Shown: piece by piece, positions 5,662 to 48,479 of the stretch
Layout: every line of letters begins with the position of its first letter
Numbering within the stretch: position 1 is the stretch's first letter
Sequence record: NC_049946.1
Length of the DNA: 49,168 nt
Direction: 5' to 3' (one strand)
Origin: Escherichia phage 4A7
The notes under the pieces: model-generated
The model's database searches: none
What the model saw: the letters and a program-made list of their open reading frames with translations, nothing else
What the model was told of the DNA's origin: nothing
Program-made: the position numbers and the translations under genes

Positions 5662-6009
5662 ATGGTGACGAAAACCATCACTGAACAGCGTGCGGAAGTA
5701 CGTATTTTTGCCGGTAATGATCCGGCTCATACCGCCACAGGCAGCAGCGGGATTTCTTCTGCAACACCGGCTCTGACGCCCCTGATGCTGGATGAAGCCA
5801 CCGGGAAACTGGTGGTCTGGGACGGACAGAAAGCCGGTAGTGCGGTTGGCATACTGGTACTGCCGCTTGAAGGCACAGAGACGGCGCTGACGTATTACAA
5901 GTCGGGAACCTTTGCGACGGAGGCAATCCACTGGCCTGAAAGTGTGGATGAACACAAAAAGGCCAACGCCTTTGCTGGCAGTGCCCTGAGTCACGCGGCG
6001 CTGCCGTAA
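5662..6009 (+). CDS. D: head decoration protein gpD
   Basis: 115 aa, matches lambda gpD as recalled (DPAHTATG, TPLMLD, VWDGQ, AVGILV, YYKSGTF, AFAG). AGGAGG-like RBS upstream. Confidence 0.85.
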   Translation: MVTKTITEQRAEVRIFAGNDPAHTATGSSGISSATPALTPLMLDEATGKLVVWDGQKAGSAVGILVLPLEGTETALTYYKSGTFATEAIHWPESVDEHKKANAFAGSALSHAALP

Positions 6010-6066
6010 CACGTTATCAGGCCACCGCGCTGGCCTGACTGATTTCTGAATGAAAGGAACTGATTT

Positions 6067-20874: not shown

Positions 20875-21300
20875 ATGGAATTACAGGACTGGCGAAAAGA
20901 ACCTCGTAAAAACTATTCGAATGAATTCAAACTTCGTATGGTGGAACTGGCATCACAACCTGGAGCTTGTGTTGCACAGATTGCACGTGAAAATGGCGTC
21001 AATGATAATGTTATTTTCAAATGGCTCAGGCTCTGGCAGAACGAAGGGCGTGTTTCGCGGCGTCTTCCGGTAACGACCTCTTCTGACACTGGCGTTGAAT
21101 TATTACCTGTAGAAATAACGCCGGATGAGCAGAAAGAACCTGTGGCGGCCATTGCGCCGTCTTTATCCACTTCCACTCAGACCAGAGTCAGTGCCAGTTC
21201 CTGCAAGGTGGAATTCCGTCACGGTAACATGACGCTGGAAAATCCATCGCCAGAGCTGCTCACAGTGTTGATCCGTGAACTGACCGGGAGGGGAAGATGA
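20875..21300 (+). CDS. tnpA: IS66-family accessory protein TnpA (Orf1)
   Basis: First ORF of the IS66-type triad; HTH-like N-terminus. Confidence 0.8.
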   Translation: MELQDWRKEPRKNYSNEFKLRMVELASQPGACVAQIARENGVNDNVIFKWLRLWQNEGRVSRRLPVTTSSDTGVELLPVEITPDEQKEPVAAIAPSLSTSTQTRVSASSCKVEFRHGNMTLENPSPELLTVLIRELTGRGR

Positions 21301-21647
21301 TCTCACTCCCATCAGGTACCCGTATCTGGCTCGTTGCCGGCGTTACCGATATGCGTAAATCCTTCAACGGACTGGGAGAACAGGTACAACATGTGCTGAA
21401 TGATAATCCCTTCTCCGGTCACCTGTTTATCTTCCGTGGCCGACGGGGTGACACCGTCAAAATTCTTTGGGCTGATGCTGATGGTCTGTGCCTGTTCACC
21501 AAACGCCTGGAGGAAGGCCAGTTTATCTGGCCTGCGGTACGTGACGGCAAGGTATCCATTACCCGCTCGCAACTGGCAATGCTCCTCGATAAGCTGGACT
21601 GGCGTCAGCCAAAAACATCCAGCCGTAACTCACTGACAATGTTGTAA
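21297..21647 (+). CDS. tnpB: IS66-family Orf2 (TnpB)
   Basis: 116-aa ORF overlapping tnpA (ATGA), typical of IS66 orf2. Confidence 0.8.
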   Translation: MISLPSGTRIWLVAGVTDMRKSFNGLGEQVQHVLNDNPFSGHLFIFRGRRGDTVKILWADADGLCLFTKRLEEGQFIWPAVRDGKVSITRSQLAMLLDKLDWRQPKTSSRNSLTML

Positions 21648-21677
21648 AAAACTCCTGACCGCATTATAAAAACGGTC

Positions 21678-23291
21678 ATGAGTCAGAAATACCTCATTCG
21701 CATCGCAGAGCTGGAAAGGTTGCTCTCTGAGCAGGCTGAAGCCCTCCGTCAGAAAGACCAGCAACTGAGTCTGGTTGAAGAGACGGAAGCCTTCCTGCGC
21801 TCTGCACTGACACGTGCCGAAGAAAAGATCGAAGAAGATGAACGGGAAATAGAACATCTGCGGGCTCAGATAGAAAAACTGCGCCGGATGCTGTTCGGTA
21901 CCCGTTCTGAAAAACTGCGTCGTGAAGTTGAACTGGCTGAGGCTCTGCTGAAACAACGTGAACAGGACAGCGATCGTTACAGTGGGCGGGAAGACGATCC
22001 TCAGGTTCCCCGCCAGTTGCGACAGTCGCGCCATCGTCGTCCGTTACCGGCACACCTTCCCCGTGAAATACACCGCCTGGAGCCAGAAGAAAGCTGTTGC
22101 CCGGAGTGTGGCGGTGAGCTGGATTATCTGGGGGAAGTCAGCGCTGAACAGCTGGAACTGGTGAGCAGTGCCCTGAAAGTGATCCGCACAGAACGGGTAA
22201 AAAAAGCCTGTACAAAATGTGACTGTATTGTTGAAGCACCGGCGCCGTCCCGCCCGATAGAGCGTGGTATCGCGGGCCCCGGATTACTTGCCCGCGTGTT
22301 AACGGGAAAATACTGCGAACATCTGCCACTGTATCGTCAGAGTGAAATCTTTGCCCGCCAGGGTGTCGAACTGAGCCGGGCCTTACTCTCCAACTGGGTT
22401 GACGCGTGCTGCCAGTTAATGACACCGGTGAATGATGCCCTGTACCGTTATGTAATGAATACCCGCAAGGTTCACACTGATGACACACCGGTAAAGGTAC
22501 TGGCACCGGGTCAGAAAAAGGCGAAAACAGGGCGTATCTGGACGTATGTCCGGGATGATCGCAATGTGGGTTCGTCATCTCCTCCAGCGGTCTGGTTCGC
22601 GTACTCGCCGAACCGGCAGGGGAAACACCCGGAGCAACACCTCCGCCCCTTCCGGGGTATCCTGCAGGCGGATGCGTTCACAGGTTACGACAGGTTGTTC
22701 AGTGCAGAACGTGAAGGTGGTGCACTGACAGAAGTTGCGTGCTGGGCCCATGCCCGGCGAAAAATCCACGATGTATACATCAGCAGCAAAAGTGCGACGG
22801 CAGAAGAAGCCCTGAAGCGAATCAGTGAACTGTACGCCATCGAGGATGAAATACGGGGATTACCGGAGTCAGAGCGTCTTGCCGTCAGGCAGCAGCGAAG
22901 CAAAGTGTTACTGACGTCGCTGCATGAATGGATGGTGGAGAAGAATGGTACGCTGTCGAAAAAATCCAGACTGGGCGAAGCGTTCAGCTATGTACTGAAT
23001 CAGTGGGATGCCCTCTGTTATTACAGTGATGACGGTCTGGCGGAGGCGGATAATAATGCTGCGGAAAGAGCGCTTCGTGCAGTCTGTCTCGGAAAGAAAA
23101 ACTTTATGTTCTTTGGCAGCGATCACGGCGGCGAGCGTGGAGCACTGTTGTACGGGCTGATCGGCACCTGCCGTCTGAACGGTATCGATCCGGAAGCGTA
23201 TCTGCGCCATATCCTGAGCGTACTGCCGGAATGGCCTTCCAACCGAGTTGACGAACTCCTGCCATGGAACGTAGTACTCACCAATAAATAA
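21678..23291 (+). CDS. tnpC: IS66-family transposase (TnpC)
   Basis: 537 aa with an N-terminal coiled coil/leucine zipper, a CxxC...CxxC zinc motif and a DDE-type core; position and size typical of IS66 TnpC. Confidence 0.85.
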   Translation: MSQKYLIRIAELERLLSEQAEALRQKDQQLSLVEETEAFLRSALTRAEEKIEEDEREIEHLRAQIEKLRRMLFGTRSEKLRREVELAEALLKQREQDSDRYSGREDDPQVPRQLRQSRHRRPLPAHLPREIHRLEPEESCCPECGGELDYLGEVSAEQLELVSSALKVIRTERVKKACTKCDCIVEAPAPSRPIERGIAGPGLLARVLTGKYCEHLPLYRQSEIFARQGVELSRALLSNWVDACCQLMTPVNDALYRYVMNTRKVHTDDTPVKVLAPGQKKAKTGRIWTYVRDDRNVGSSSPPAVWFAYSPNRQGKHPEQHLRPFRGILQADAFTGYDRLFSAEREGGALTEVACWAHARRKIHDVYISSKSATAEEALKRISELYAIEDEIRGLPESERLAVRQQRSKVLLTSLHEWMVEKNGTLSKKSRLGEAFSYVLNQWDALCYYSDDGLAEADNNAAERALRAVCLGKKNFMFFGSDHGGERGALLYGLIGTCRLNGIDPEAYLRHILSVLPEWPSNRVDELLPWNVVLTNK

Positions 23292-24134: not shown

Positions 24135-24992
24135 CTAATTGGGTGATAACAGATCCTGTGTATGGGAGTTTCCCTTTTTGCGTGCGTTGATGCTGGTAAC
24201 GGCAAACGTCATGATGAACAAAACCGCGAATAAGACGACAATCGTCGGAGCTGGTGCGCTGTCGATAAAAAAGGACAACCAGACACCAGTCATTGACACT
24301 ATTACCGATATGCCAGTCGCCAGTAGGAGCGCAATATGAAAGCGTTGTGTCAGGAGTACCGCAATGGCGCCAGGCGCAATGAGCAGAGAAATGGAGAGAA
24401 TGATACCTACCGCTTTCAGCGTCGCCACAATGGTCAGAGAGACCATGCACAGCAGCCCATAATGCAGCCATCTCGTATGCAAACCGCTTACCTGCGCCTG
24501 TTGATAATCAAAGCTGAACAGCAAAAAATCCCGCCATTTTACGCTAATAACAAGTGTAACCAGCCCGGCAATAATCATCGTCTGGATTATATCGCCGATG
24601 GTTATCCCGAGCATGTCGCCGAAAAGAATATGGTCAAGATGTACGTCTGGTTTGACTGCAATATACAAGATCAGACCTGCGGCAAACATGCCAGAAAAAA
24701 CAATCCCCATCACTGTATCTTGCTTGATTCGGCTGTTGTCTTTCAGGTATCCCGTCGCCACCGCGCAGAATACTCCGGCGACGAATGCCCCTGTAGCCAA
24801 AGGTAACCCCAGAATCCAGGCAAGCACGATGCCAGGAAAAACCGCATGACTCATCGCGTCACCCATCAGTGCCCAACCTTTCAGGACCAGAAAGACCGAC
24901 AGCAGCGCACAGGGTATGGAAACTACCAGTGAAATCAGCAGTGCGTGACTCATAAAGGTGAACTGCAGTGGCTCCAGTAATAATGCCATCAT
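24135..24992 (-). CDS. sitD: Mn/Fe ABC transporter permease SitD
   Basis: 285-aa polytopic membrane protein, last gene of the sitABCD-type operon, overlapping sitC. Confidence 0.85.
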   Translation of the reverse strand: MMALLLEPLQFTFMSHALLISLVVSIPCALLSVFLVLKGWALMGDAMSHAVFPGIVLAWILGLPLATGAFVAGVFCAVATGYLKDNSRIKQDTVMGIVFSGMFAAGLILYIAVKPDVHLDHILFGDMLGITIGDIIQTMIIAGLVTLVISVKWRDFLLFSFDYQQAQVSGLHTRWLHYGLLCMVSLTIVATLKAVGIILSISLLIAPGAIAVLLTQRFHIALLLATGISVIVSMTGVWLSFFIDSAPAPTIVVLFAVLFIMTFAVTSINARKKGNSHTQDLLSPN

Positions 24993-25846
24993 GAGCGATC
25001 CTCCAGCGCCTTATGCGCACGCCGACGATTTGCCAAAAGCCCATGGGTGGGCGCAAAGACAAATGCTAAAAGAAACAGCAGTGTCTGCGCCACCACGATG
25101 ATTCCACCTGTCGCGCCGTCCAGAAAGTAACTGACCCACGCGCCGAGGAAACTGGTTACACTGCCAATAGTTACAGCAATCATGAGCAGGCGGGGAAAAC
25201 GATCGGTTAACAACCATGCTGTTGCACCGGGAGTCACCACCAGACAGATCACCAGAAAGGCACCAACCGTTTGCAGCGCCGCAACGGTCGAAACCGACAG
25301 CAGGGTGAAGAAGAGGAGTTTTAATCTGCCCGGATGCAATCCAATAGCACGGGCGTGATTCTCGTCGAAAAAGGTCACCATAAGATCTTTCCATTTGAAA
25401 AAAAGCACGATGATCGAGAGAATGCCAATGATAGTGAGTTGCAGGATATCCGCCGGATCGATTGCCAGAATATTGCCCAGGACGATGGTCTGAATGTTCA
25501 CAGATGTCGGGTTCAATGACACCATAAACAGCCCCAGGCCAAAAAAGGACGAGAAGATCAGACCGATGATGGCATCTTCTTTTAAGCGGGTGCGTTGGTT
25601 AAGAAACAGCATGCTGCCCGCAGCCAGTCCGCCGGAAAAGAAGGCTCCCAGAGAAAACGGAAGCCCCAGCATATATGCCCCCGCAACACCCGGGACAATA
25701 GAGTGCGACAACGCATCGCCAATCAGCGACCAGCCTTTTAGCATCAGATAGCATGACAGGAAAGCGCAGAGACCGCCGACCATCGCCGAGACCCACATCG
25801 CATTGAGCATATATTCATAGCTGAAGGGTTCCAGTAGCACGTTCAT
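24989..25846 (-). CDS. sitC: Mn/Fe ABC transporter permease SitC
   Basis: 285-aa polytopic membrane protein, paralogous to sitD; overlaps sitB. Confidence 0.85.
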
Positions 25847-26670
25847 CTTTCTTCCCTCTGCACCGCTGACGGTCGATGAGCCACAAAAGGGCGTTCATCG
25901 TCAGTAATAATGCTTTCTTCCGAGCCGTTAAGTGTGACATGGCGCAGTACGCCGCTAAAAGCCAGCTCTAGGTTCTCGGCTGTAAAAGTGGTGTCTGTCG
26001 GCCCGCTTGCCAGGACGGTGCCTTTGACCATGACCGTATAATCGCAAAATGTCGTGACGGATCCGAGATTGTGTGTTGAGACAAGCATCGTTTTGCCTTC
26101 CGCGCGTAACTCCCTCAACAGGCTGATGATTTTGGCTTCGGTTTTCACATCAACGCCAGTAAAAGGTTCATCCAGCAGGATCACATCACCCTGCTGTGCA
26201 ATCGCTCTCGCCAGAAAGACGCGTTTCTTTTGTCCACCGGAAAGCTCGCCGATTTGTCGATGGCGAAAATTCACCATATCGACACGTTCCAGCGCATCGG
26301 TGACAATTTGACGATCCCTCTTTTTGGCGATACGCAACATACCCATATGCCCATAGCGGCCCATCATCACCACATCTTCCACCAGTACAGGAAATGACCA
26401 GTCAACCTCTTCTGACTGAGGGACGTAGGCAACCAGGTTTTTCTGTAACGCCTGTCGCGTGGGAATACCCAGAACAGATATCTTTCCGCTGGTCAGACGC
26501 ACAAATCCCATAATCGCTTTAAACAACGTCGATTTTCCGGAACCGTTTACCCCAACCAGAGCGGCAATAGATCCACTTGGTACTGTGAAGGATGCATCGC
26601 GCAGTGCTGTGTGCCCGTTATGCCAGGTGACAGCAACATCATTAACGACAATGCCTGCAGATTGCATCAT
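25843..26670 (-). CDS. sitB: Mn/Fe ABC transporter ATP-binding protein SitB
   Basis: Walker [13 protein letters not shown] signature LSGGQKKR, Walker B ILLDEP. Confidence 0.9.
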
Positions 26671-27584
26671 TATTTCTCCCTTTTCCCGGCTTTAATTCCC
26701 TGTACCAGCGTACTGGTAGTAACCTTAAGAAGGTCGATATACGTCGGTACCGGGCCGTTTTCTGTGCTCAGGGAATCGACATAGAGCACACCGCCGTAGT
26801 GTGCGCCGGTTTCACGCGCAACCTGACGCGCTGGTTTATCGGAAATCGTACTCTCGCTAAAGACTGCCGGGATATGATTTTTCTTAACTATATCAACAAC
26901 CTTACGTACCTGCTGCGGTGTTCCTTGTTGATCGGCATTAATCGGCCACAGATAAAGCTCTTTTAGCCCCAAATCGCGTGCGAGATAAGAAAAAGCCCCT
27001 TCACTGGTGACCATCCATCGCTGATTCTCAGGGAGTTCCGTAATCTGCTTACGCAGGGGGGCAAGGGTTTGGGTAATCTTGGCTTTATAAGTATCGGCAT
27101 TGCGTTGGTAGGTTTGTGCATTTGCCGGATCGTATTTTATCAACGCATCACGAATATTATCGACGTAAATCAGAGCATTATCTGGCGACATCCATGCATG
27201 GGGGTTAGGTTTGCCCTCATAGGGTCCTTCGGTGATCCCTACAGGCGTCACACCCGAAGAGACAATTACTTCTGGAACCCCATTGAGATGCTGGTAAAAG
27301 CGTTGGAACCACAATTCCAGATTCATACCATTGGCGAGAATCAGTTGTGCCCCCTGCGCACGTTTAATATCGCCAGGGGTAGGCTGATACTCATGAATTT
27401 CTGCACCAGGCTTGGTTATGGATGAGACTTCTGCAGCATCTCCCGCCACGTTTTTGGCCATATCCGCGATGATGGTAAATGTTGTAATGACCTTAAATTT
27501 TTCAGTTGCACTTGCCTGAAATGCGATCGAGCAGGTGAGTGCGAGGCCCCCCAAGAGCATGGTTACTTTTTTTATTGAGCGCAT
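26670..27584 (-). CDS. sitA: periplasmic Mn/Fe-binding protein SitA
   Basis: 304 aa with signal peptide; cluster-9 (MntC/YfeA/SitA-type) solute-binding protein; first gene of the operon. Confidence 0.9.
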
Positions 27585-33364: not shown

Positions 33365-33775
33365 TTAGTGATTCAGGCCGTTGCCGCGTCCGTCGAGAAA
33401 AACTTCCACGAGCAAATCACGGGTATAAGTGCGCTCGATGCCGCGATGCAGATAAAGCCGTCCGCGTAAATTAGCTGATGCAGTCCAGGTACCATCTTTG
33501 TGTTTGACCAGCATTCCTGGCATGACCGCACCGCGATTAACGGTCTGCGTTCCGTAATGTTGATGAACCATAAAAACTCCTGCCCGTAAGCTGGGCTGCT
33601 GAACATATAGAGACTTCTGCGCGTATTCAGGCGGTGGATGGCCGCCGGTTGTCATAACTAAGCCGCCTCGTTGAAGCGACTGAGGTATGAGGTGTTGAGT
33701 TGATTTCAGCTGGTCACACCGACGTTCACGCGTCCGCTTCACCCCTCGCACTCCCCGGAGCCTGCTGAAATTCAA
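33365..33775 (-). CDS. hypothetical protein, first ORF downstream of the putative pL (start uncertain; the listed ORF begins at TTG and an internal ATG is at 33655)
   Basis: Occupies the N/kil/cIII position; Arg-rich N-terminal extension; no lambda N similarity recognised. Confidence 0.35.
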
Positions 33776-33849
33776 GCTGCGGATCTAAGCGGTCATCGCA
33801 ACGGTGAATCAGGTGATTGCCGTATCGTTGTGTTGTTGCGACATGGTGA

Positions 33850-33895
33850 TAATAGCTATTGTTATTGGCTGTATCAATACTTATTGCTATTGATT
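33850..33895. promoter_or_regulatory. putative oL/pL operator region
   Basis: GCTATTGTTAT and ATTGCTATTG motifs here recur in the cI-cro intergenic region (36281-36321); location left of the cI-proximal cassette mirrors lambda oL. Confidence 0.35.
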
Positions 33896-34009
33896 GATGT
33901 GTTTTGATATTAACTGTTTGATAGCAAAAAGAATTAATTTTGTGACTTGTATCGCATAGCGATAACTGAAGGGAGGATGTGGTGGTTTTTCGAACGGTTT
34001 GTGTGATGA

Positions 34010-34042
34010 GGGGACAAAAGAAAACCCGGCACGGTGGCCGGG
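34010..34042 (-). terminator. intrinsic terminator ending the cI-cassette transcript (timm-like)
   Basis: On the minus strand: stem CCCGGC/GCCGGG with loop CACCGT, followed by TTTTCTTTTG, 5 nt after the stop of the 125-aa gene. Confidence 0.5.
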
Positions 34043-34046
34043 ATTC

Positions 34047-34424
34047 TTACGCAGGTAGGTAAAGATATGATTGTGGTGGCTTAATATTACTACCTAGAGC
34101 AGAGATAGGAATTGGTTCTTTATATCTTTCCACTTCACCAATTTTTATTGCGTAGGCCTTTTCTCTACCTGAATAATATGAGTCATAAAATTGCTTAGAA
34201 ATACCTGCGTGTTTTTCCGTCTTTTTCCAAAGAGATTCCGGTTCGTCACTTAGTATTGATTCAATACGGAATTGACCAACAACTTTACCTAATGGCATCG
34301 TGGCATAAATAACAACGGTGCTAATTTGCGGATTTTTGAATATACCTTTACGAAACTCGAACCGCTTTGTTCCGTTCAATATTTTTTCTGCAAACTCAGG
34401 CTTAATGGATAATAAAACTTTCAT
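34047..34424 (-). CDS. ASCH-domain (PUA-like fold) protein, cassette gene 2
   Basis: 125 aa; N-terminus MKVLLSIKPEFAEKILNGTKRFEFRKG carries the ASCH-type GxKxxExR signature; AT-rich codon usage; overlaps the upstream gene by 23 bp. Confidence 0.6.
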   Translation of the reverse strand: MKVLLSIKPEFAEKILNGTKRFEFRKGIFKNPQISTVVIYATMPLGKVVGQFRIESILSDEPESLWKKTEKHAGISKQFYDSYYSGREKAYAIKIGEVERYKEPIPISALGSNIKPPQSYLYLPA

Positions 34425-35475
34425 TTATCTTGCCTAACTCGATGATCTTTAAGAACTGCTCATTTGTGAGTTTAAAGTGACTCCATCGGAATGCACGCGA
34501 ACCATTTAGCCCCACATGATCTATTAAAATAGCACGATTGGGTCTCTTTGGCAAAGACAGATTGTATGTGAATCTTATAATGAAAGGGTATCGACGTTCT
34601 TTATAGATTTTTCTGAGTTCATCTTCAGAAAATACGCTAAAACGAATACAATAGTCTACAAAACTATCTTCGCTTAAAAATTCAGAAATATTTTTTACGC
34701 TCTCAACTACACATAATGTACTGGCTACAGAACGATAGCGAGCTGGCCCTTTTTTGTCTCCGGTTCTATAGATGACAATGATATCTCCTCTTTTCATTCC
34801 CATCACAGAACGCATTCCACATATGTAAATTTTATGAATGCTGTTAGCATGGGATATATCTTTGACAATATCTGGTGATTCATTTACAAGTTTTGAATCA
34901 GGGAATAGTCTAGTGTGATATTCGGGATAAATCGCCAGTAAATATTTGTTGGCCCTTGATGTCATTATTCGAGGGTAATCTAATAAAATATCACCATAAG
35001 GCTCATGCAAAGACCTCGCATATACAAACTCTTTCCCGTTATGTGTTTCTTTTTCACCATGAATGTAAAATCCGTACGTTTGGAAAAGTTTTATTAGATG
35101 GACGTGTTTGTCGAAAACAGTAACATAAATATCATCAGATTTTGATGAAAATGCATGGTCAAACGCTTTTTTTAGAAATCGTTGTCCGCGAAGGGTGCCT
35201 TTAGATTCAAATTTGAATGTTCCTATCTTTAGATGACGTCCTGGTGGGAGCGCTGGATTAATGTCATTTGCATCATCATTTTCTTTTAGATACATAAAAC
35301 CTTCGATTTTATGCTTGTCATCATAGAGCACATAAGCTGATTCTCCTTCTCTGGCTTTTTTTTCTAACCAAAGAGGAAACTCTTTATAATCTTTTTTTAA
35401 AGAGTCAAAAAATGGGTCATTGTGATCAAAATCAGAGAATTTCTCATATTTTAAAGTATCCATTAAGTTCTCCAT
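34402..35475 (-). CDS. unknown 353-357-aa protein, cassette gene 1 (likely start at the Met at 35463 with a GGAG RBS)
   Basis: Long AT-rich ORF immediately downstream of cI on the same strand; C-terminal half has a PUA/EVE-like pattern (KRGDIIVIYRTGDKKG...VVESVK); no catalytic motif recognised. Confidence 0.6.
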   Translation of the reverse strand: MENLMDTLKYEKFSDFDHNDPFFDSLKKDYKEFPLWLEKKAREGESAYVLYDDKHKIEGFMYLKENDDANDINPALPPGRHLKIGTFKFESKGTLRGQRFLKKAFDHAFSSKSDDIYVTVFDKHVHLIKLFQTYGFYIHGEKETHNGKEFVYARSLHEPYGDILLDYPRIMTSRANKYLLAIYPEYHTRLFPDSKLVNESPDIVKDISHANSIHKIYICGMRSVMGMKRGDIIVIYRTGDKKGPARYRSVASTLCVVESVKNISEFLSEDSFVDYCIRFSVFSEDELRKIYKERRYPFIIRFTYNLSLPKRPNRAILIDHVGLNGSRAFRWSHFKLTNEQFLKIIELGKINESFIIH

Positions 35476-35543: not shown

Positions 35544-36236
35544 CTATCCATGCTTCCTATACGTCTGCGGCATGCTCCCAATAACTTTCCCGAAGATAAA
35601 TACCCGGTTCATCTCATCTTTCTCGATCGGGTCCCACGGTGAGTAGCTTTTGTTATCAGAGATAACCAGCAGCTTATCCTTCATCATTTGCAGGCGCTTT
35701 ACATGGGCTGTGTCGTCGTACAGAAACGCATAGATACCATCACCGTCGAAAGATTTAACCGTGATATCAACGAATAGAAGATCACCAGGTTCAATCGTTC
35801 CTGACATGCTGTCACCGCGTACGTTAATGATGCGGATATTTTCTGCCTTCCTACCATCGAACATGTGACGAGCATCGTCAAACGAGTACTCAACCGAGCG
35901 TAGAACTTCTACAAACTCACGGTTGATGACTCCCGGCCCGGCACTCACTTCTATATCAAGAACGTCAATCTTGAAGTATTTGGGATGGTTGGCAGTAGGC
36001 TTCCCTAATTGTTGACCGTCATTTCTCATCGGGCCTATGCCTGATGAGAGCCACTCTGTTCGAACACCCAATGCATTAGCTATTTCAACAATTTTTGTTG
36101 AGCCGCGCGCGTTGCCGCTTGTCAGTCTCCAGATTGTGGGTTGAGCTACGCCAGACGCCTTTGCAAGAGCGCCTTGAGACATTCCAGATTGTTCCATCGC
36201 TAGGTTTAAGCGATCAGCAAGAGTTTCTTTTTTCAT
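35544..36236 (-). CDS. cI: CI-type repressor (N-terminal HTH, C-terminal S24 LexA-like peptidase)
   Basis: HTH (QGALAKASGVAQPTIWRL), then the S24 catalytic motifs GDSM and the downstream Lys (HVKRL). ATG at 36236; the listed ORF extends to a TTG at 36272. Confidence 0.8.
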   Translation of the reverse strand: MKKETLADRLNLAMEQSGMSQGALAKASGVAQPTIWRLTSGNARGSTKIVEIANALGVRTEWLSSGIGPMRNDGQQLGKPTANHPKYFKIDVLDIEVSAGPGVINREFVEVLRSVEYSFDDARHMFDGRKAENIRIINVRGDSMSGTIEPGDLLFVDITVKSFDGDGIYAFLYDDTAHVKRLQMMKDKLLVISDNKSYSPWDPIEKDEMNRVFIFGKVIGSMPQTYRKHG

Positions 36237-36248
36237 AAGTTTTAATTT

Positions 36249-36330
36249 ATACGCTTGCGTATTGATGGTCAAAACACGTTTTGCTATTGTTATGATTAAT
36301 ACGCATTGCTATTATTTATTCATTGTAATA
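36249..36330. promoter_or_regulatory. putative oR/pR-pRM operator region
   Basis: Perfect palindrome ATACGCTTGCGTAT at 36249-36262 plus GCTATTGTTAT / ATTGCTATT repeats shared with the putative oL; lies between divergent cI and cro. Confidence 0.4.
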
Positions 36331-36346
36331 CCAATAGGAATTAATA

Positions 36347-36574
36347 ATGACAAATCAAACCATTCAACTCGCAATCAGTATTACAGGTAGTCAAAAACGA
36401 CTGGCAGATCTATGCGGTGTAGCCCAGCCCACTGTTTGGCGTTGGCTACACGGTGGCGGAATTGATGCCCGCTATGTAATGAAAATTGTCTCAGCCACTG
36501 GTGGAAAGATTAAACCAGCAGATATTCGTCCCGACCTCGCACCATTGTTTAACGCGAGTAATTCTGCCGCCTAA
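36347..36574 (+). CDS. cro: Cro-like HTH regulator (YdaS-like)
   Basis: 75 aa, HTH (RLADLCGVAQPTVWRWL), divergent from cI. Confidence 0.65.
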   Translation: MTNQTIQLAISITGSQKRLADLCGVAQPTVWRWLHGGGIDARYVMKIVSATGGKIKPADIRPDLAPLFNASNSAA

Positions 36575-36598
36575 TCTGCGGCGTTAACTGATAAGGCA

Positions 36599-37144
36599 AT
36601 GACTATGCAACCACTTACATACCAACAGACTAGCGGATTTAGCCCGACTGCGGTGATAAATCGTTCTCAAACAAAACAGGCGCCAGGCCACGAAAAAATC
36701 CGTGATGCCGTTCGCGCCTGGTCGGCTGCAGATAATCAGGATGTTGTTGCCGCACTCATTGTGAATGAGTATCGGGAGCAGGGCGGCGGCACCATCGATT
36801 TTCCTGATGATGTCAGCCGTGCACGCCAGAAGCTGTTCCGCTTCCTCGATAACAAATTCGATTCTGAAAAATACCGAAATAACGTGCGTGAACTGACCCC
36901 GGCAATTCTGGCGGTACTACCGCTGGAATATCGCGGCCACCTGGTTGAGCAGGATAGCTTCATGGCTCGGCTGGCTGAAATGGAAAAGGAACTCAGTGAG
37001 GCAAAACAGGCTGTCATTCTCAACGCACCACGCCACCAGAAACTGAAGGAGATGAGTGAAGGCATTGTGTCGATGTTTCGTGTGGACCCGGATCTGGCTG
37101 GTCCACTGATGGCGATGGTCACCACCATGCTGGGGGCAATATGA
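36599..37144 (+). CDS. YdaT-like protein (CII functional analogue)
   Basis: 181 aa; shares YdaT motifs as recalled (EYREQGGG and LTPAILAVLP); lies between cro and O. Confidence 0.55.
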   Translation: MTMQPLTYQQTSGFSPTAVINRSQTKQAPGHEKIRDAVRAWSAADNQDVVAALIVNEYREQGGGTIDFPDDVSRARQKLFRFLDNKFDSEKYRNNVRELTPAILAVLPLEYRGHLVEQDSFMARLAEMEKELSEAKQAVILNAPRHQKLKEMSEGIVSMFRVDPDLAGPLMAMVTTMLGAI

Positions 37145-39224: not shown

Positions 39225-39557
39225 ATGAACCCTTATATTTATCTTGGTGGTGCAATACTTGCAGAGGTCATTGGTACAACCTTAATGAAGTTTTCAGAAG
39301 GTTTTACACGGTTATGGCCATCTGTTGGTACAATTATTTGTTATTGTGCATCATTCTGGTTATTAGCTCAGACGCTGGCTTATATACCTACAGGGATTGC
39401 TTATGCTATCTGGTCAGGAGTCGGTATTGTCCTGATTAGCTTACTATCATGGGGATTTTTCGGCCAACGGTTGGACCTGCCAGCCATTATAGGCATGATG
39501 TTGATTTGTGCCGGTGTGTTGGTTATTAATTTATTGTCACGAAGCACACCACATTAA
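39225..39557 (+). CDS. emrE: small multidrug resistance efflux transporter EmrE
   Basis: 110 aa, matches E. coli EmrE as recalled (MNPYIYLGGAILAEVIGTTLMKFSEGFTRLWPSVGTIICYCASFWLLAQTLAYIPTGIAYAIWSGVGIVLISLLSWGFFGQRLDLPAIIGMMLICAGVL...); emrE is DLP12-associated in K-12. Confidence 0.9.
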   Translation: MNPYIYLGGAILAEVIGTTLMKFSEGFTRLWPSVGTIICYCASFWLLAQTLAYIPTGIAYAIWSGVGIVLISLLSWGFFGQRLDLPAIIGMMLICAGVLVINLLSRSTPH

Positions 39558-41663: not shown

Positions 41664-41690
41664 AGCCCGCATAAGTGCGGGCTGCTTTTT
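41664..41690 (+). terminator. intrinsic terminator between convergent ybcK-side and esterase genes
   Basis: Stem AGCCCGC/GCGGGCT with loop ATAAG, followed by GCTTTTT. Confidence 0.55.
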
Positions 41691-42732
41691 ACAGGTCAGC
41701 GTTTGTTTTTTGTTGTTGGGTAGCGGTTTTTATGGGGGTTCCCAGGTTTTTAGTAAACCACTCAACAACTCTGTTTATAATAATTGGCTGATACCATGTA
41801 TTATCGCCATGCTCGGCCCCTTCTACCAGCACGTACTCAGCGTTATCACCGTTCTTCTTCAACATCCTGAATAGTTTGGCGCTTTGCTCAGGTGAAACCA
41901 GAGTGTCTTTGCTACCATGCATAATAAGAAATGGGGGTTTTACTCCTTTCATATGTCCGATTGGACTGGCGTTTAGCGCTTTTTCTTTTGACGCTGTGAT
42001 GGGGGCTCCCGCAAAATTTCTGAATGCAGGGCCATTGATCATTAAGGCTTCGGTTACGGCAGGAGAGCGATGAACCTCCTGCACTGATTCAGGGAACCCC
42101 TCGCCAATATTCAACAAGTCAGAAATCCCATAAAGTGTGGCAACTGCCTGAACATCTGAGGATTGCTGAAGAAAGTCACCTTTATCAAAGGTTTTGTCAC
42201 CATTTGTAGTTCCCATCATCTGGGCAAGCCATCCACCGGCAGAGTCACCCAGAACTCCGATTCTTTGAGGATCAATCCCATAATTGCTGGCATGCTCTCT
42301 CAGGTAACGTATTGCAGCTTTTCCATCCTCAACTGGTGCTGGAAATGTATCAGGAATTGTTCTGTATTCTACAGCGGCCACAACAAAACCAGCTTCTGCC
42401 AGAGCCATTCTCATTTCAATAAATTTGTCATGTTCAGAAGACATGAATCCGCCGCCGGGATAATAAATAATGGCTGGTTTTAAATCATTTGTTCGCGGGA
42501 CAAGAACTGACATGTGAAGCTGTCTGACAGAACGAGTTCCTTTTATCTGGGAATAAACAACATCACCAATGAGATCGACCTGGTTTCTGGTCGGTGAAAC
42601 ACTAATGATATCTGCACCCGGGGTGTAACCAGGAAGATTAGTCTGGACAGGTGTTGCACAACTCCCGACCGACATGGCCATTGACATACCATACAATAGT
42701 GTTGCAGATGATAATATCTTGTTAATTTTCAT
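41689..42732 (-). CDS. alpha/beta-hydrolase fold esterase/lipase, probable lipoprotein
   Basis: 347 aa; signal peptide with lipobox-like VGSC; HSL-family motifs YYPGGGF and GDSAGG (nucleophile elbow GxSxG); C-terminal His. Confidence 0.7.
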   Translation of the reverse strand: MKINKILSSATLLYGMSMAMSVGSCATPVQTNLPGYTPGADIISVSPTRNQVDLIGDVVYSQIKGTRSVRQLHMSVLVPRTNDLKPAIIYYPGGGFMSSEHDKFIEMRMALAEAGFVVAAVEYRTIPDTFPAPVEDGKAAIRYLREHASNYGIDPQRIGVLGDSAGGWLAQMMGTTNGDKTFDKGDFLQQSSDVQAVATLYGISDLLNIGEGFPESVQEVHRSPAVTEALMINGPAFRNFAGAPITASKEKALNASPIGHMKGVKPPFLIMHGSKDTLVSPEQSAKLFRMLKKNGDNAEYVLVEGAEHGDNTWYQPIIINRVVEWFTKNLGTPIKTATQQQKTNADL

Positions 42733-44088: not shown

Positions 44089-44447
44089 ATACCTACAGCA
44101 TCACATTACCCTGGCCGCCGAGCAATAATCGCTATTACCGCCATAATCGCGGACGCACGCATATCAGCGCAGAGGGGCAGGCATACCGCGATAATGTCGC
44201 CCGAATCATTAAAAACGCAATGCTGGATATCGGCCTGGCTATTCCTGTGAAAATCAGCATTGAGTGCCACATGCCGGATCGCCGTCGCCGTGACCTTGAT
44301 AATCTGCAAAAGGCCGCTTTTGACGCACTCACCAAAGCAGGTTTCTGGCTGGATGATGCTCAGGTCGTTGATTACCGCGTTGTGAAGATGCCCGTTACCA
44401 AAGGTGGGAAGCTGGAGCTGACTATCACTGAACTGGGAGATGAATGA
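44085..44447 (+). CDS. rusA: Holliday junction resolvase RusA
   Basis: 120 aa, matches E. coli RusA as recalled ([26 protein letters not shown]...[25 protein letters not shown]). Confidence 0.9.
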
Positions 44448-44584
44448 TGTTTGAGTCTTATATGGCAGAGCGTCTTCGCCGCCGCTGGGTGCGCCTGCGC
44501 TTATATCGTTTTCCTGGTTCTGTTTTGACCGATTACCGAATACTGAAGAATTACGCCAAAACCCTGACAGGAGCAGGAGTATGA
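44444..44584 (+). CDS. ylcG: YlcG-like small protein
   Basis: 46-aa ORF overlapping the rusA stop (ATGATG), in the DLP12 position between rusA and Q; not in the ORF track. Confidence 0.5.
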
Positions 44585-44669
44585 AGTCAGAGATAACAAT
44601 CAACTAATACTGTTTTGTTGATTTTTGCTTGTAATTGGCGTTCTGGTCTGATTTTTGTGGAGTAAGTTG

Positions 44670-45053
44670 ATGCGTGATATTCAGATGGTTCTTGAGCGTT
44701 GGGGAGCGTGGGCGGCTAATAATCATGAAGATGTGACCTGGTCGTCCGTTGCCGCCGGTTTTAAGGGATTAATTCCTTCAAAAGTAAAATCTCGCCCGCA
44801 ATGTTGTGACGATGACGCGATGATCATTTGCGGGTGCATGGCCCGTCTGAAAAAGAACAACAGCGATTTACACGATTTATTAGTAGATTATTATGTATGT
44901 GGTATGACATTCATGTCACTGGCAAGTAAGCATTGCTGCTCGGATGGTTATATCGGGAAAAGGTTACAGAAGGCTGAGGGCATAATTGAAGGGATGTTAA
45001 TGGCATTAGATATCCGGTTAGATATGGATATCGTTGCTAATAATTCTAATTGA
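44670..45053 (+). CDS. Q: late-gene antiterminator Q (phage 82 / DLP12 QuuD type)
   Basis: From [24 protein letters not shown] onward it matches QuuD as recalled; Cys-rich zinc site ([12 protein letters not shown]). Confidence 0.85.
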
Positions 45054-45190
45054 TATGCAATTGTTTACTAAAAGTTATTAAAAATGGGGCGTGGAAACGC
45101 CCCCAAAATAAAGGGTAATATATAACAGAAGGTTTATATAGTAAGAAGCAAGGTAGTGCTTCTAAAGGAAGTGGCTTGAGGGCTCCACTT

Positions 45191-45230
45191 ATATGTTGCG
45201 GAGGCAAAGCCTCCCGCAACATATCTTTTT
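45191..45230 (+). terminator. strong intrinsic terminator ~140 nt downstream of Q (tR' candidate)
   Basis: ~15-bp stem ATATGTTGCGGAGGC/GCCTCCCGCAACATAT with loop AAA, followed by CTTTTT; the spacing from Q fits the lambdoid pR'-6S RNA-tR' arrangement. Confidence 0.6.
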
Positions 45231-45241
45231 CGTAAGTCAGA

Positions 45242-46324
45242 TTAGAACTGATAAACCAGACCTACAGCGACGATGTCGTCGGTATCAATACCAGCTGTTT
45301 TGGTAAACTTACTATCGTCAATTAAGTTGATTTTGTAATCAACAAAAGTGGACATGTTTTTATTAAAGTAGTAAGTAGCACCGACATCGACATACTTGAC
45401 TAAGTCTCGGTCACCATGAACACCAAGGTCTTTACCTTTTGACTGAAGGTAAGCAACAGATGGTCGCAGACCGAAGTCAAACTGATATTGTGCTACTGCT
45501 TCAAAGTTTTGTGCTTTGTTTGCAATATGGTTATTACCAAAAACGGTCATATTCTGAGTTTCAGAATATGTGGTAGCCAGATAGATATTGTTCGCATCAT
45601 ATTTCAGGCCTGCAGCCCATACTTCCGCATTTTTGCCGGAGGCATTGAATTTGCTCTTACCATAGGCGACCTGACCGTCAGTGCGATCTGATTTAGCATA
45701 GGTTGCACCCACGCCGAATCCTTCATACTCATAAGTAGTGGAGAAACCGAAACCATCACCATTGACTTCAGTTACGTCAGTGCGGTCATTTTTACCCTGA
45801 TACTGAGCAGCAAAGTTCAGGCCATCGACCAGACCAAAGAAGTCGTTGTTACGATAAGTTGCAACACCAGTAGTGCGACCAGTCATGAACACATCTGTTT
45901 GGGTCCAGGTATCACCACCGAATTCTGGCAGGACGTCAGTCCACGCACCGATGTCGTATGCTACACCGTAGTTACGGCCGTAATCGATTGAGCCGTAATC
46001 ACCAAATTTCAGGCCTGCAAATGCAAGACGGGTTTTGTCTTTGGAAGAACCTTGAGATTCAGCACGGTTGCCTTTGAATTCATATTCCCACTGACCGAAA
46101 CCAGTCAGTTGATCGTTGATTTGGGTTTCACCTTTGAAGCCAAGACGGGCATAAGTAGTATCACCATCATCTGCATCATTAGAGGAGAAGTAGTGCTTGG
46201 CATTAACTTTCCCGTATAGATCCAGCTTGTTACTGTCTTTATTATAAATTTCAGCTGCCTGAGCAGACATCGCCATCAGTACTGATGCAGCTACAGCAGA
46301 AATTGCCACTGTTAATTTTTTCAT
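45242..46324 (-). CDS. nmpC: OmpC/OmpF-family general porin (NmpC / Lc-like phage porin)
   Basis: 360 aa; signal peptide [23 protein letters not shown], porin motifs ([35 protein letters not shown]) and a C-terminal Phe. Confidence 0.9.
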
Positions 46325-46751
46325 TGTACGCCCTTTTTTTTGAACTATTATTAAAAAATGATGTCACTGCGCGATAAATATTCATCTAATCAATGCGATT
46401 ATTTCAAGATGTAAGTTTTAGTTTCTCATTTAATTTGTGAAGTAGATCTCTATTTTTATCTGAACCTTTTCTATCTAATCCTATTCATGGCTCTTGTTTG
46501 AACGAAAATAAATCTATTAGCTAATTTATATTAATGGCACTTATTTATAAGCGCTCTATAATTCTTTAGCTTAATTTAAACAAACTAAAAATAACATCGG
46601 AAATTATTCATTGGTTATTTGTTGAAGTTTTCTTATGTATTTGTGGTGGTGTTTTGAACACTCGGTGGCATTCTCACAAATATCATTTAGTAGTTTACGT
46701 ACGTAAAAAATTGGTTATGCTGTTAAGAGTGGTTACTTCGTCACACAGCTT

Positions 46752-46784
46752 AAACCCGCCGTCGAGCGGGTTTTTCCATTTTTT
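46752..46784 (+). terminator. intrinsic terminator upstream of the lysis cassette
   Basis: Stem AACCCGC/GCGGGTT with loop CGTCGA, followed by TTTCCATTTTTT. Confidence 0.5.
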
Positions 46785-46913
46785 GAGTCTCGATATTAGC
46801 TGATAACCCAATACCTGAGTTATTCACTGACTCCGAATCTGTTACGTTTCTGCCTTTATTGCGATACGTAGTATCCCCTTAATTTACACCCGCTTTGTCT
46901 GCGAGGTGGGGTT

Positions 46914-47129
46914 ATGAAATCCATGGATAAGTTAACAACGGGTGTCGCCTATGGCACCTCAGCAGGTAGTGCCGGGTACTGGTTTTTACAGTTGCTCGAT
47001 AAAGTCACGCCCTCACAGTGGGCGGCAATAGGTGTGCTGGGTAGTCTGGTATTTGGCTTGCTGACGTATCTGACAAACCTTTATTTCAAGATTAAAGAAG
47101 ATAAGCGTAAGGCTGCGAGAGGTGAATAA
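46914..47129 (+). CDS. S: class II holin / pinholin (phage 21 S-like, dual start Met1/Met4)
   Basis: 71 aa, matches S21 as recalled (MKSMDK...[17 protein letters not shown]...[11 protein letters not shown]...[11 protein letters not shown]...RKAARGE). Confidence 0.9.
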
Positions 47130-47626
47130 TGTCGCCATCATTACGCAAGGCTATTGCTGCTGCTATTGGTGGTGGGGCTGTTGCCATAGCGTCTGTGCTC
47201 ATCACTGGTCCGAGTGGTGACGATGGCCTGGAAGGTGTCAGCTACATACCATACAAAGATATCGTTGGCGTATGGACTGTATGTCACGGACACACCGGAA
47301 AAGACATCATGCTCGGTAAAACGTATACCGAAGCAGAATGCAAAGCCCTCCTGAATAAAGACCTTGCCACTGTCGCCAGACAAATTAACCCGTACATCAA
47401 AGTCGATATACCGGAAACAACGCGCGGCGCTCTTTACTCGTTCGTTTACAACGTGGGCGCTGGCAATTTCAGAACATCGACGCTTCTTCGCAAAATAAAC
47501 CAGGGCGATATCAAAGGCGCATGTGATCAGCTACGGCGCTGGACATACGCTGGCGGTAAGCAATGGAAAGGGCTGATGACTCGCCGTGAGATTGAGCGTG
47601 AAGTCTGTTTGTGGGGGCAACAATGA
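47129..47626 (+). CDS. R: SAR endolysin (T4-lysozyme-like muramidase, R21 type)
   Basis: N-terminal signal-anchor-release segment ([18 protein letters not shown]); lysozyme motifs (EG...YIPYKD..G.WT.C.GHTG); follows the pinholin. Confidence 0.9.
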
Positions 47627-48066
47627 GCAGAGTAACCGCGATTATCTCCGCTCTGGTTATCTGCATCATCGTCTGCCTGTCATGGGCTGTTAATCATTAC
47701 CGTGATAACGCCATCGCCTACAAAGAGCAGCGCGACAAAGCCGCATCTACTATCGCTGACATGCAGAAGCGTCAACGTGATGTAGCAGAACTCGACGCCA
47801 GATACACAAAGGAGCTTGCTGATGCTAACGCGACTATCGAAAGTCTACGTGCTGATGTTTTTGCTGGTCGTAAGTGGCTGCGCGTCAAAGCAGTCTGTCC
47901 GGACATGCATAAAACCACCGCCGCCTCCGGCGTGGATGATGGTGCCAGCCCCAGACTTACTGACACCGCTCAACGGGATTATTTCGTTCTCAGAGAGCGC
48001 ATCGAAACCGTAACTAACCAATTGAATGGTCTGCAAGAGTATGTGAGATCACAGTGTTCATATTAG
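47623..48066 (+). CDS. Rz: i-spanin Rz
   Basis: From [31 protein letters not shown] onward it resembles lambda Rz as recalled; ATGA overlap with R. Confidence 0.85.
47816..48013 (+). CDS. Rz1: o-spanin Rz1 (lipoprotein, embedded in Rz in the +1 frame)
   Basis: Lipobox LVVSGC, then a proline-rich segment ([15 protein letters not shown]...TPLNGII) as in lambda Rz1; lies entirely within Rz. Confidence 0.7.
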
Positions 48067-48104
48067 AAAAGTCTTATCATAAGATTTTTGTATATGGATG
48101 CATT

Positions 48105-48479
48105 ATGTCTCAATACGCTCAAGCCGCTTTAAATGCTTATCAATTGGTTGCTCATAACTCAATGTCTCCTCGTGATGCATGGGAGGCTGCTGTCGCTGAG
48201 GTTACAGAAAGCGAATCGGCAAGAAAGAAGGGATGCCCAAGGGCAACGTTTCTCGCTCTGGCGGATAGCGGTTATCTGAAGAATGTAAAACAACATCATG
48301 GGGAGAAAAAGATCGGTAAGTTGTACCAAAGGGCAATTGAAGTTGCGAATCTGATTCTTGATTTACCCGGAATTAGCAAAGCTGAGCTAGTTGATAAAAC
48401 TTGCTATAAAGACAGGCAAGGGTCTTATGACATTGCTCTAACTCTCGCTCAGCACGGATTACTCCAGCGTCCTCAATAA
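48105..48479 (+). CDS. hypothetical protein in the bor-equivalent position
   Basis: ORF downstream of Rz followed by a terminator; ATG at 48105 (the listed ORF starts at a GTG inside Rz at 48054); no recognised homologue. Confidence 0.4.
   Translation: MSQYAQAALNAYQLVAHNSMSPRDAWEAAVAEVTESESARKKGCPRATFLALADSGYLKNVKQHHGEKKIGKLYQRAIEVANLILDLPGISKAELVDKTCYKDRQGSYDIALTLAQHGLLQRPQ

Follow-up and report, generated by a model that had tools for sequence, protein, structure and literature searches.

The window analysed here is the complete 49,168-nt sequence of Escherichia phage 4A7 (NC_049946.1), an apparently functional phage identical to Lambda_4C10. The region of interest contains five genes: the antiterminator gene Q on the plus strand, a porin gene on the minus strand, and the plus-strand genes for an S21-type holin, a lysozyme, and Rz (Table 1). 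The Q protein was 80% identical to Q of 933W over 120 amino acids and is distantly homologous to Q21, a protein with available structures; the mechanical open reading frame of Q begins upstream, at TTG 44655. Genes homologous to the lysis cassette (46914-48066) are annotated in the records of 434B and phage 21.

Table 1 Features of the Q-porin-lysis region (window coordinates).
Feature	Position	Strand	Basis
Late-gene antiterminator Q, QuuD/Q933W type	44667-45053	+	Pfam PF06530, E 9.6e-54
T1, intrinsic terminator of porin transcript	45080-45103	-	stem 45103-45086 followed by A and UUUUU to 45080
Porin 3'UTR, homologue of the IpeX sRNA region (DLP12/PA-2), 162 nt	45080-45241	-	spacer homology
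T2, hairpin with T-run	45191-45230	+	stem-loop 45191-45224, then C, TTTTT 45226-45230
NmpC/Lc-type general porin, 360 aa, OmpC family	45242-46324	-	PF00267 (Porin_1), E 3.2e-151, full length
Porin upstream regulatory region, AT-rich (25-28% GC), 366 nt	46325-46690	-	base composition
SigmaE-like site GAACT-17-TCACT	46342-46368	+	inside porin upstream region
pR' late promoter (predicted)	46694-46728	+	homology to annotated, dRNA-seq-mapped pR' of 933W/Sp5
pR' -35 TTTACG	46694-46699	+	homology
Palindrome TTTACGTACGTAAA, candidate Q-binding element	46694-46707	+	unique in window; co-varies with Q subtype
pR' -10 TATGCT	46716-46721	+	homology
pR' start A46728	46728	+	homology
Late leader (~50 nt) with promoter-proximal terminator tR'	46728-46780	+	stem 46752-46773, U-rich tail
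S21-type holin/antiholin	46914-47129	+	lysis-cassette Pfam matches PF04971, PF00959, PF03245
SAR-type lysozyme	47129-47626	+	lysis-cassette Pfam matches PF04971, PF00959, PF03245
Rz with embedded Rz1	47611-48066	+	lysis-cassette Pfam matches PF04971, PF00959, PF03245

The region is a DLP12/PA-2-type Q-porin-lysis module. In K-12 DLP12 (qsr'), the genes quuD-nmpC-essD-rrrD-rzpD show the same order and orientations, with the same holin, lysozyme, and Rz families, and identities to the window of 95% for the Q protein, 94% for the Q-porin spacer, and 100% over 93 nt for the pR' cassette. The DLP12 porin is an Lc-like allele with 86% nucleotide identity to the window porin, and its interruption by IS5 enlarges the gap to 2,890 nt, compared to 1,675 nt in the window. 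The PA-2 lc region (GenBank J02580) shares with the window the 3' spacer (IpeX), the upstream region, and the pR' cassette (99%) but differs in a mismatch variant of the tR' stem. Knowledge of the Q-nmpC/lc-S arrangement goes back to the 1980s, its porin is long-known NmpC/Lc cargo, and control of the DLP12 lysis operon by Q was published previously. With the module present in 2,392 of 5,426 complete E. coli genomes, the layout itself has little weight as a discovery. What the present analysis adds is a sequence-based answer to the questions of which hairpin is tR' and where pR' sits.

The assignment of the minus-strand gene between Q and the holin to the OmpC family, made earlier from the sequence alone, was confirmed by the Porin_1 match and by 91% protein identity to Lc of PA-2. 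The match covered residues 29-360, and a signal peptide and a C-terminal phenylalanine (...VYQF) were read from the sequence; together with the full-length domain and the identity to Lc, these features fit a general porin of the OmpC/OmpF type, NmpC/Lc subgroup. No minus-strand consensus promoter for the porin gene was flagged by the promoter scan. The CRP site annotated in the PA-2 record corresponds to window positions ~46433-46453 in the upstream region. Lc is expressed in PA-2 lysogens, and reviews on IpeX imply the same.

The view of the porin gene as a moron lying antisense to rightward transcription was likewise borne out. It has its own minus-strand terminator (45103-45080) and is absent from the same position in some close relatives: only 22 or 45 nt separate Q from pR' in phages of the 933W and PhiR49_2 types, and in others unrelated cargo fills the gap. 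The porin would thus be a self-contained, oppositely oriented cargo unit with its own AT-rich upstream region and, as such a unit between Q and pR', would lie outside the late transcript.

Read on the minus strand, the spacer downstream of the porin gene is a strongly structured RNA (-53.6 kcal/mol, z = -6.4) that shares 94% identity with the DLP12 and PA-2 spacers. Like IpeX, it lies between the porin stop and a terminator, and the stretch 45080-45246, which begins at the T1 U-run and reaches the region of the porin stop codon, has the length given for IpeX, 167 nt. T1 forms its terminal stem-loop (-13.8 kcal/mol) and was detected by the terminator scan, which returned 12 sites in the region compared to 4.8 +/- 2.5 expected; it is a third terminator that the sequence-only reading had missed. 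An Rfam scan of 44400-47200 (E up to 1) gave chance-level matches only (sau-19, Trp leader), and Rfam has no model for IpeX or StxS.

Both plus-strand hairpins described earlier on the flanks of the porin gene are real, but their roles had to be reconsidered. T2 folded at -21.9 kcal/mol (z = -7.0), with none of 200 shuffled sequences as good, and was overlooked by the consensus terminator scan because its stem has a one-base bulge. Its T-run is retained or improved among sequence variants, and on the opposite strand it forms an internal stem-loop of the porin 3'UTR. T2 had been described as tR'-like; with T2 as tR' and pR' just after Q, Q-modified polymerase would cross the porin gene antisense and pass the second hairpin to reach the lysis genes, coupling porin shut-off to lytic growth. 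Such a layout would follow lambda, 933W, PhiR49_2, and phage 21, in which pR' directly follows Q, and the hairpin is strong, with a plus-strand T-run ~180 nt after Q, a lambda-like distance. We nevertheless consider it highly improbable. The consensus promoter scan found no plus-strand promoter-like site between the Q stop and T2 (45054-45190), and the spacer shows homology to no pR', is confined to porin-bearing phages, and as minus-strand RNA ends in a canonical terminator. Furthermore, the mapped pR' of the closest characterised Q has its homologue at 46694-46728, and unrelated cargo separates Q from the cassette in many relatives. T2 is probably the terminator of the Q (early-right) transcript, which it would stop before entry into the porin gene, with an insulating role. 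With T2 ending the Q transcript and T1 ending the porin transcript, the two are convergent and overlap by ~150 nt in their 3'UTRs. When the gaps of 19 relatives were searched in a crude way, strong or bidirectional terminators were found directly after Q in several, not all, of them; this recurrence in other cargo-bearing relatives suggests selection for insulation.

The second hairpin belongs to a segment homologous to the pR'-leader cassette of 933W/Sp5, which spans window positions 46691-46785. Alignment of 46691-46775 with the 933W segment annotated as pR'/tR' at the end of Q gave ~78% identity, with the -35, the palindromic spacer, the -10, the start region, and the first hairpin all homologous. 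In Sp5, a phage of the 933W type, dRNA-seq placed the pR' start 258 nt before a Term-seq 3' end (PMC7547250). Counting back from the U-run of the second hairpin in 933W led to A1538, 7 nt after the -10 TATCAT, and the homologous base gave the predicted window start, A46728. The promoter, TTTACG-16-TATGCT, shares only 8 of 12 positions with the sigma-70 consensus, and the promoter scan did not flag it; since the scan found neither pR' nor a promoter after Q, it could not decide between the two locations alone. The surroundings differ: the 933W promoter overlaps the end of Q (gap 22 nt), whereas a 1.66-kb porin unit separates the two in the window, and the leader of 933W, the source of the StxS sRNA, runs to a second terminator at +258, beyond which lie tRNAs and stx. 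In the window the holin follows, and the terminator scan detected no second terminator between tR' and the holin.

The tR' stem is followed by TTCCATTTTTT and was detected by the terminator scan. By itself the hairpin folded modestly (-12.2 kcal/mol, z = -1.9), but it is kept in ~120 related loci; a C.U mismatch in the stem was seen in 26 related loci. In the covariation test, 96.8% of cells were paired, with no double changes and conserved columns, and a small 5' leader hairpin likewise showed conserved columns without double changes. Positions +1 to +24 of the leader are nearly invariant across related loci. No convincing candidate for a sigma-dependent pause element was found in the leader, where no clear conserved -10-like hexamer with A2 and T6 was seen. 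The order of a terminator followed by late genes is present, with the hairpin at 46752-46773 and the holin from 46914 on the same plus strand. The first hairpin of Sp5 is read through in vivo, yielding a 258-nt RNA that ends at a second terminator, and the termination efficiency of the homologous tR' is therefore uncertain. In the 1986 annotation of PA-2, a CRP site covers some of the pR' leader; this reading of 46728-46748 was rejected, as the half-sites have a spacing of 8 rather than 6 nt and the stretch is conserved pR' leader.

Comparison with phage 21 extended the likeness to a more distant system. Its Q belongs to the same Pfam family, but with only ~33% identity over 80 amino acids, and its promoter has no DNA homology to that of the window. 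The layout matches that predicted for the window: a Q-binding element (QBE), for which the window has a candidate, lies between -35 and -10, and the terminator ends ~50 nt into the transcript; the experimentally based annotation of phage 21 gives a -35, QBE, -10, start, pause element, and a terminator at +3 to +50. The QBE of Q21 consists of a direct repeat (ATTGAGCA / AATGAGCA), in contrast to the palindromic candidate in the window.

The association of the cassette with Q was examined in 125 loci carrying the conserved leader motif. A Q gene of the PF06530 family lies upstream on the same strand in 101 of them, the remaining 24 having at most 1.73 kb of upstream sequence. The gap between Q and the cassette in the 101 loci varies widely (22, 45, 635, ~820, 866-1,700, and up to 2,963 nt). 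Co-variation with the Q subtype was seen in the promoter spacer: TTTACG(TA/AT)CGTAAA accompanies a Q of at least 80% identity, and GCGGTCCGC or GCGTACGC accompanies a Q of 45-52% identity, while the leader and hairpin are common to both groups. Among porin-bearing loci, the cassette is 98-100% identical except in two (95%), compared to 84-93% for the porin upstream spacer, 84-95% for the downstream leader, and 86-91% for the porin in the same loci, which makes the pR' cassette the best-conserved non-coding piece of the module. In five loci (L032, L040, L041, L046, and L143), Q, porin, and cassette are joined to another downstream module, and the break falls immediately behind the hairpin; the cassette thus stays linked to Q rather than to the holin. 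Lambda_ev245, whose Q is 86% identical and is followed by a minus-strand lipocalin gene, had no cassette within the 2.5 kb examined. In the family of the window Q, then, Q and its target promoter are often split by an insulated slot holding oppositely oriented, putatively lysogen-expressed cargo, namely the porin here and Kiwa, a KAP NTPase, or other defence genes in relatives, a pattern that can assist the annotation of lambdoid prophages, both of their late promoters and of their cargo islands.

Based on the homology to Sp5/933W, the linkage to Q in 101 loci, and the co-variation of the spacer with the Q subtype, the late promoter is most likely located at 46694-46728, downstream of the porin gene and next to the lysis genes. 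We consider it likely that Q acts in trans on this promoter, that the porin lies outside the late transcript, and that T2 ends the Q transcript. Q would then act on a pR' 1,675 nt downstream of its own stop codon and 186 nt before the holin. Polymerase starting at A46728 would meet the hairpin at 46752-46773 and terminate after ~50 nt unless modified by Q, in which case it would continue into S, R, and Rz; promoter activity, Q dependence, terminator efficiency, and insulation by T2 are steps that we infer, whereas the sequence itself shows the gene identities, hairpins, homologies, linkage, and conservation. With pR' after the porin gene, late transcription need not cross that gene antisense. 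The earlier proposal that it must do so is therefore unsupported, and the outcome named beforehand as its refutation, a late promoter downstream of the porin gene, was reached by homology.

Work on DLP12 also favours a late promoter downstream of the porin gene, as a fragment from the 5' end of nmpC to essD served there as the promoter region of the lysis operon, which is reported to be under Q control (PMC7918800). Judging from the primers of that study, the published 'essDp' start appears to lie ~350 nt upstream of pR', at ~46374. The functional late promoter could be this sigmaE-type 'essDp' beside the porin start codon (GAACT-17-TCACT, 46342-46368), as has been proposed for DLP12, with 46694-46728 as a relic or a Q-loading/terminator site. 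The regulatory fragment (-121 to +650), whose primers put +1 at the K-12 equivalent of 46374, and the control by RpoE and Q cited for the operon in the same paper (PMC7918800) are consistent with this possibility, which we regard as quite unlikely. Conservation of the essDp region is among the lowest in the module (84-93%), and the region is absent in 933W-type and PhiR49_2-type phages, whose cassette stays beside Q. Q proteins load on sigma70-containing polymerase paused close to the promoter; polymerase started 350 nt upstream is not expected to be modified by Q and would stop at the 46752 hairpin. Moreover, a start at essDp would likewise keep the porin gene out of the late transcript, and the antisense model gains nothing from it.

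The porin gene could also be transcribed antisense in lytic growth if early rightward RNAs, rather than those from pR', passed T2 by N-like or RNA-based antitermination, which is compatible with pR' at 46694-46728. Early transcription in lambda-type phages is antiterminated and ignores intrinsic terminators, and since Q and the porin gene are convergent, T2 is the sole plus-strand barrier between them. This route seems somewhat unlikely. No N-type antiterminator was found left of the repressor, where the open reading frames encode an ASCH-domain protein, a PHROG of unknown function, and Kil, and the immunity region is Rac-like, with YdaS and YdaT. T2 is also strong and conserved together with its T-run, and strong or bidirectional terminators right after Q recur in cargo-bearing relatives.

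With late transcription most likely starting at pR' beyond the porin gene, the Q and porin transcripts would still meet in their convergent 3' ends. The ~150 nt of perfect complementarity between Q and porin/IpeX transcripts might constitute an RNA-level switch, although we think this unlikely. The porin 3'UTR, abundant in lysogens, could base-pair with stray Q mRNA and make it less stable, an action comparable to that of the lambda paQ antisense RNA. After induction, Q mRNA in large excess could titrate IpeX, and the porin mRNA could undergo double-strand cleavage as a result. If this were true, porin/IpeX shut-off would be tied to lytic growth, as the sequence-only reading had suspected, but through the overlapping 3'UTRs and not through late readthrough.

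The window is the genome of a lambdoid phage, Lambda_4C10 (LR595861.1), with a rotation of 283 nt and 99.996% identity over 48,886 nt, and the 2.6 kb around the Q-porin-lysis region are 100% identical in several phages. Of 5,426 complete E. coli genomes, 2,392 carry this 2.6-kb region with a coverage of at least 80%, and RefSeq names its genes there quuD, porin (ompC/nmpC), essD, and rrrD. It is the late-region module of DLP12 (qsr') and PA-2. Gene calls, the PF00267 domain, and the likeness to PA-2 Lc confirmed the proposal of the sequence-only reading that an NmpC/Lc-type cargo porin lies antisense between Q and the lysis genes. The two plus-strand hairpins said to flank the porin gene were also recovered, the first (T2) by folding of 45191-45230 and the second by a terminator scan, together with a minus-strand terminator that had been missed (T1). 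After Rz, a DUF6979 gene occupies 48054-48479 (+), the place taken in DLP12 and phage 434B by bor in the opposite orientation.

Table. Annotated features of the window and the evidence for them
Feature	Position	Strand	Evidence or remark
Q	44667-45053	+	PF06530, E 9.6e-54
T1	stem 45103-45086, U-run down to 45080	-	intrinsic terminator
Hairpin 1 (T2)	stem-loop 45191-45224, then C + TTTTT to 45230	+	-21.9 kcal/mol, z = -7.0
Porin	45242-46324	-	PF00267 full length, E 3e-151; 91% identical to PA-2 Lc
Putative pR' -35, TTTACG	46694-46699	+	homology to 933W
Putative pR' -10, TATGCT	46716-46721	+	homology to 933W
Putative pR' start, A46728	46728	+	base homologous to 933W A1538
Hairpin 2	46752-46773, U-rich tail	+	terminator scan; folding z only modest, -1.9
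S21-type holin	46914-47129
Lysozyme	47129-47626
Rz	47611-48066
Three 'mobile element protein' ORFs	20875-23291		further phage cargo; after tail fibre genes
sitABCD manganese/iron transporter operon	24135-27584	-	further phage cargo
ORFs left of repressor	33365-35463		ASCH-domain protein; 353-aa protein of unknown function; Kil
EmrE-type small efflux pump	39225-39557	+	further phage cargo
Lipoprotein-like alpha/beta hydrolase	41689-42732	-	further phage cargo; BD-FAE family, E 5.5e-45

Cargo identity and orientation thus stood, but the mechanism attached to them, in which Q-dependent late transcription would run antisense through the porin gene, was not supported, as the pR' homologue was placed downstream of the porin, at 46694-46728. 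Hundreds of Stx phages matched a short part of the porin-holin spacer, and window positions 46691-46775 match a segment labelled as promoter and terminator at the end of Stx-phage Q genes; in 933W (Y10775.2) this segment is the putative pR' plus tR'. Q933W and the window Q share 80% identity over 120 residues, with PF06530 in both. Strain Sakai carries a phage of the 933W type, Sp5, for which dRNA-seq combined with Term-seq mapped the pR' start to a position 258 nt upstream from a terminated 3' end (PMC7547250). In 933W (locus L002), only one hairpin followed by a U-run lies suitably far away; it ends at 1790-1795, which would set the start at A1538, 7 nt past the -10 (TATCAT) of the promoter found by the scan, TTTACG-16-TATCAT. 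Counted from the homologous base A46728, the second hairpin covers +25 to +46 of the late leader, in which no convincing sigma-dependent pause hexamer was found.

An alternative to A46728 is the 'essDp' start of the DLP12 literature, whose regulatory fragment spans -121 to +650 (PMC7918800, in which control of the DLP12 lysis operon by Q and RpoE is referenced to Rueggeberg et al. 2013 and 2015). From the primers in PMC7918800, its +1 is the K-12 equivalent of window 46374, beside which lies a sigmaE-like GAACT-17-TCACT; A46728 has the homology to 933W on its side. Both starts are downstream of the porin, and with either one late transcription would not cross the porin gene. Separately, a plus-strand promoter-like ATGGCA-17-TATAAT (10/12) at 46534-46562, in the AT-rich porin upstream region, points towards pR'; transcripts from this site, if made, would run into the 46752 hairpin. 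The 1986 PA-2 GenBank record marks a second 'CRP binding site' (L003 1730-1750, window 46728-46748) that coincides with the conserved pR' leader from +1 to +21; as the half-sites are separated by 8 nt instead of 6 nt, it is probably not a CRP site.

The 95-nt pR'-leader-tR' cassette (46691-46785) was compared across the 80 viral contigs whose Q reaches 95% identity or more, and its identity was 98-100% in all but two loci (95%); values in the same set were 84-93% for the porin upstream spacer, 84-95% for the leader-to-holin spacer, and 86-91% for the porin. Five related loci (L032, L040, L041, L046, and L143) join the same Q, porin, and cassette to another downstream module (methylase + tRNA type), and because this mosaic break falls directly 3' of the hairpin, the cassette travels with Q and not with the holin. 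When viral contigs scanned for the conserved leader motif were combined with loci fetched earlier (125 loci), a PF06530-type Q was found upstream on the same strand in 101, the remaining 24 having at most 1.73 kb of upstream DNA. The gap from Q stop to start was 22 nt (933W type), 45 nt (PhiR49_2 type), 635 nt, 814-831 nt (POCJ13 type), 866-1,694 nt with non-porin cargo, 1,673-1,692 nt with porin (1,675 in the window), 2,570 nt in SfIV, 2,890 nt in K-12 DLP12 with IS5, and 2,963 nt at the longest. Loci whose Q has 80% or more identity to the window Q carry the palindrome TTTACG(TA/AT)CGTAAA as promoter spacer, and those whose Q is 45-52% identical carry GCGGTCCGC or GCGTACGC, while leader positions +1 to +24 and the hairpin are common to both groups. 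This co-variation is the pattern that a Q-specific binding element within a shared late-promoter scaffold would be expected to produce. The candidate element is the perfect 14-bp palindrome TTTACGTACGTAAA (46694-46707), which overlaps the -35 and occurs once in the window; the same position was compared in about 100 loci, where it changes with Q subtype as above.

In the proposed scheme, for which we infer promoter activity, Q dependence, and terminator efficiencies beside the directly observed gene identities, hairpins, homologies, linkage, and conservation, RNA polymerase would start at A46728 and stop at the 46752 hairpin unless Q, supplied by the early-right operon, is loaded at the promoter; Q-modified polymerase would read on into S, R, and Rz. 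The porin unit, comprising the AT-rich upstream region (25-28% GC), the gene, an IpeX-type 3'UTR, and T1, would sit in the gap between Q and pR', outside the late transcript. The published StxS precursor of 933W/Sp5 is 258 nt long and ends at the second terminator, past the first hairpin (PMC7547250); since this RNA is made, the first hairpin is evidently read through in Sp5. The terminator scan detected no second terminator before the holin in the window, so that either the hairpin is efficient here or pR' is weak. In 933W, the first hairpin looks canonical (L002 1561-1582, seven U's, +24 to +52) and the second terminator lies at 1768-1795. A common tR' variant, GCTGG for GCGGG, puts a C.U mismatch midway along the 8-bp stem; it is shared by 26 related viral loci including PA-2 (L003 1755-1776), and the PA-2 sequence is thus not a sequencing error. 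A covariation test of the tR' hairpin found no compensatory changes.

The suggestion that 45191-45230 is itself tR' was not borne out: the promoter scan returned no promoter-like site between the Q stop and 45191, and the Q-porin spacer was found only beside porins (34 phage records, porin adjoining in all 34; five further matches of the spacer search fall inside the Q gene only). It shares 94% identity with the DLP12 and PA-2 spacers, from which the IpeX sRNA was described; Castillo-Keller and colleagues reportedly assigned ipeX in 2006 to the stretch that separates the nmpC stop codon from its terminator. Read as minus-strand RNA, the 171 nt running from the porin stop codon region fold (-53.6 kcal/mol, z = -6.4) into several stem-loops with the canonical T1 at the end, and the 45191-45224 hairpin is therefore read as an internal stem-loop of an IpeX-type RNA. 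The plus-strand T-run of T2 is conserved, being longer in one sequence variant, and T2 probably also terminates the rightward Q transcript, in which case the Q and porin transcripts would converge and share about 45080-45230 in their 3'UTRs. Several other relatives with cargo, though not all, also have a strong or bidirectional terminator directly after Q, and this recurrence fits an insulating role. Early transcription might, though less probably, read through T2 during lytic growth; against readthrough, the immunity region is Rac-like (35544-37144: S24 repressor, YdaS-type Cro, YdaT), and no N-type antiterminator was found among the ORFs left of the repressor.

The porin unit is a frequent insertion-sequence target: the Q-porin spacer of locus L043 carries a 723-bp insertion (5564-6288), K-12 nmpC carries IS5 (L006 1292-2486), and the porin region of E. 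coli JKHS006 and AGR5151 carries IS1, the match being split around the annotated IS1 transposase.

Phage 21, of the same Q family, has the same layout (-35, QBE, -10, start, pause element, terminator +3 to +50; literature-based record annotation), but its DNA has no homology to the window cassette, and the Q21 QBE is a direct repeat whereas the candidate element here is a palindrome. In all respects tested, the module belongs to the DLP12/PA-2 family; its porin is a classic moron, and its late cassette falls, within the Q21 family, into the Q933W/QuuD type. The Q-porin-lysis finding is already known and nothing in it is new in kind.

A by-product worth noting is that relatives of this Q family use the Q-to-pR' space, 22 nt to 3 kb long, as a cargo slot. 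The largest ORF was on the minus strand in 19 of the 21 gaps examined. Slot cargo (loci including L097, L104, L120, L189, L195, L165, L095, and L129; equivalent window slot 45054-46690) included known defence genes: Kiwa KwaB (E 2e-150), next to a membrane partner; the KAP NTPase PDC-S20 (E 1e-177); NsnA/GmrSD_N together with a C5 methylase; an AAA_15 ATPase; and a PDC-M68A-type HNH protein. Two-gene sets containing NA37 proteins and a lipoprotein were also seen. In Lambda_ev245 (L088; Q 86% identical), no pR' cassette was found within 2.5 kb downstream, and a minus-strand lipocalin (Blc) gene directly follows Q (3038-3562).
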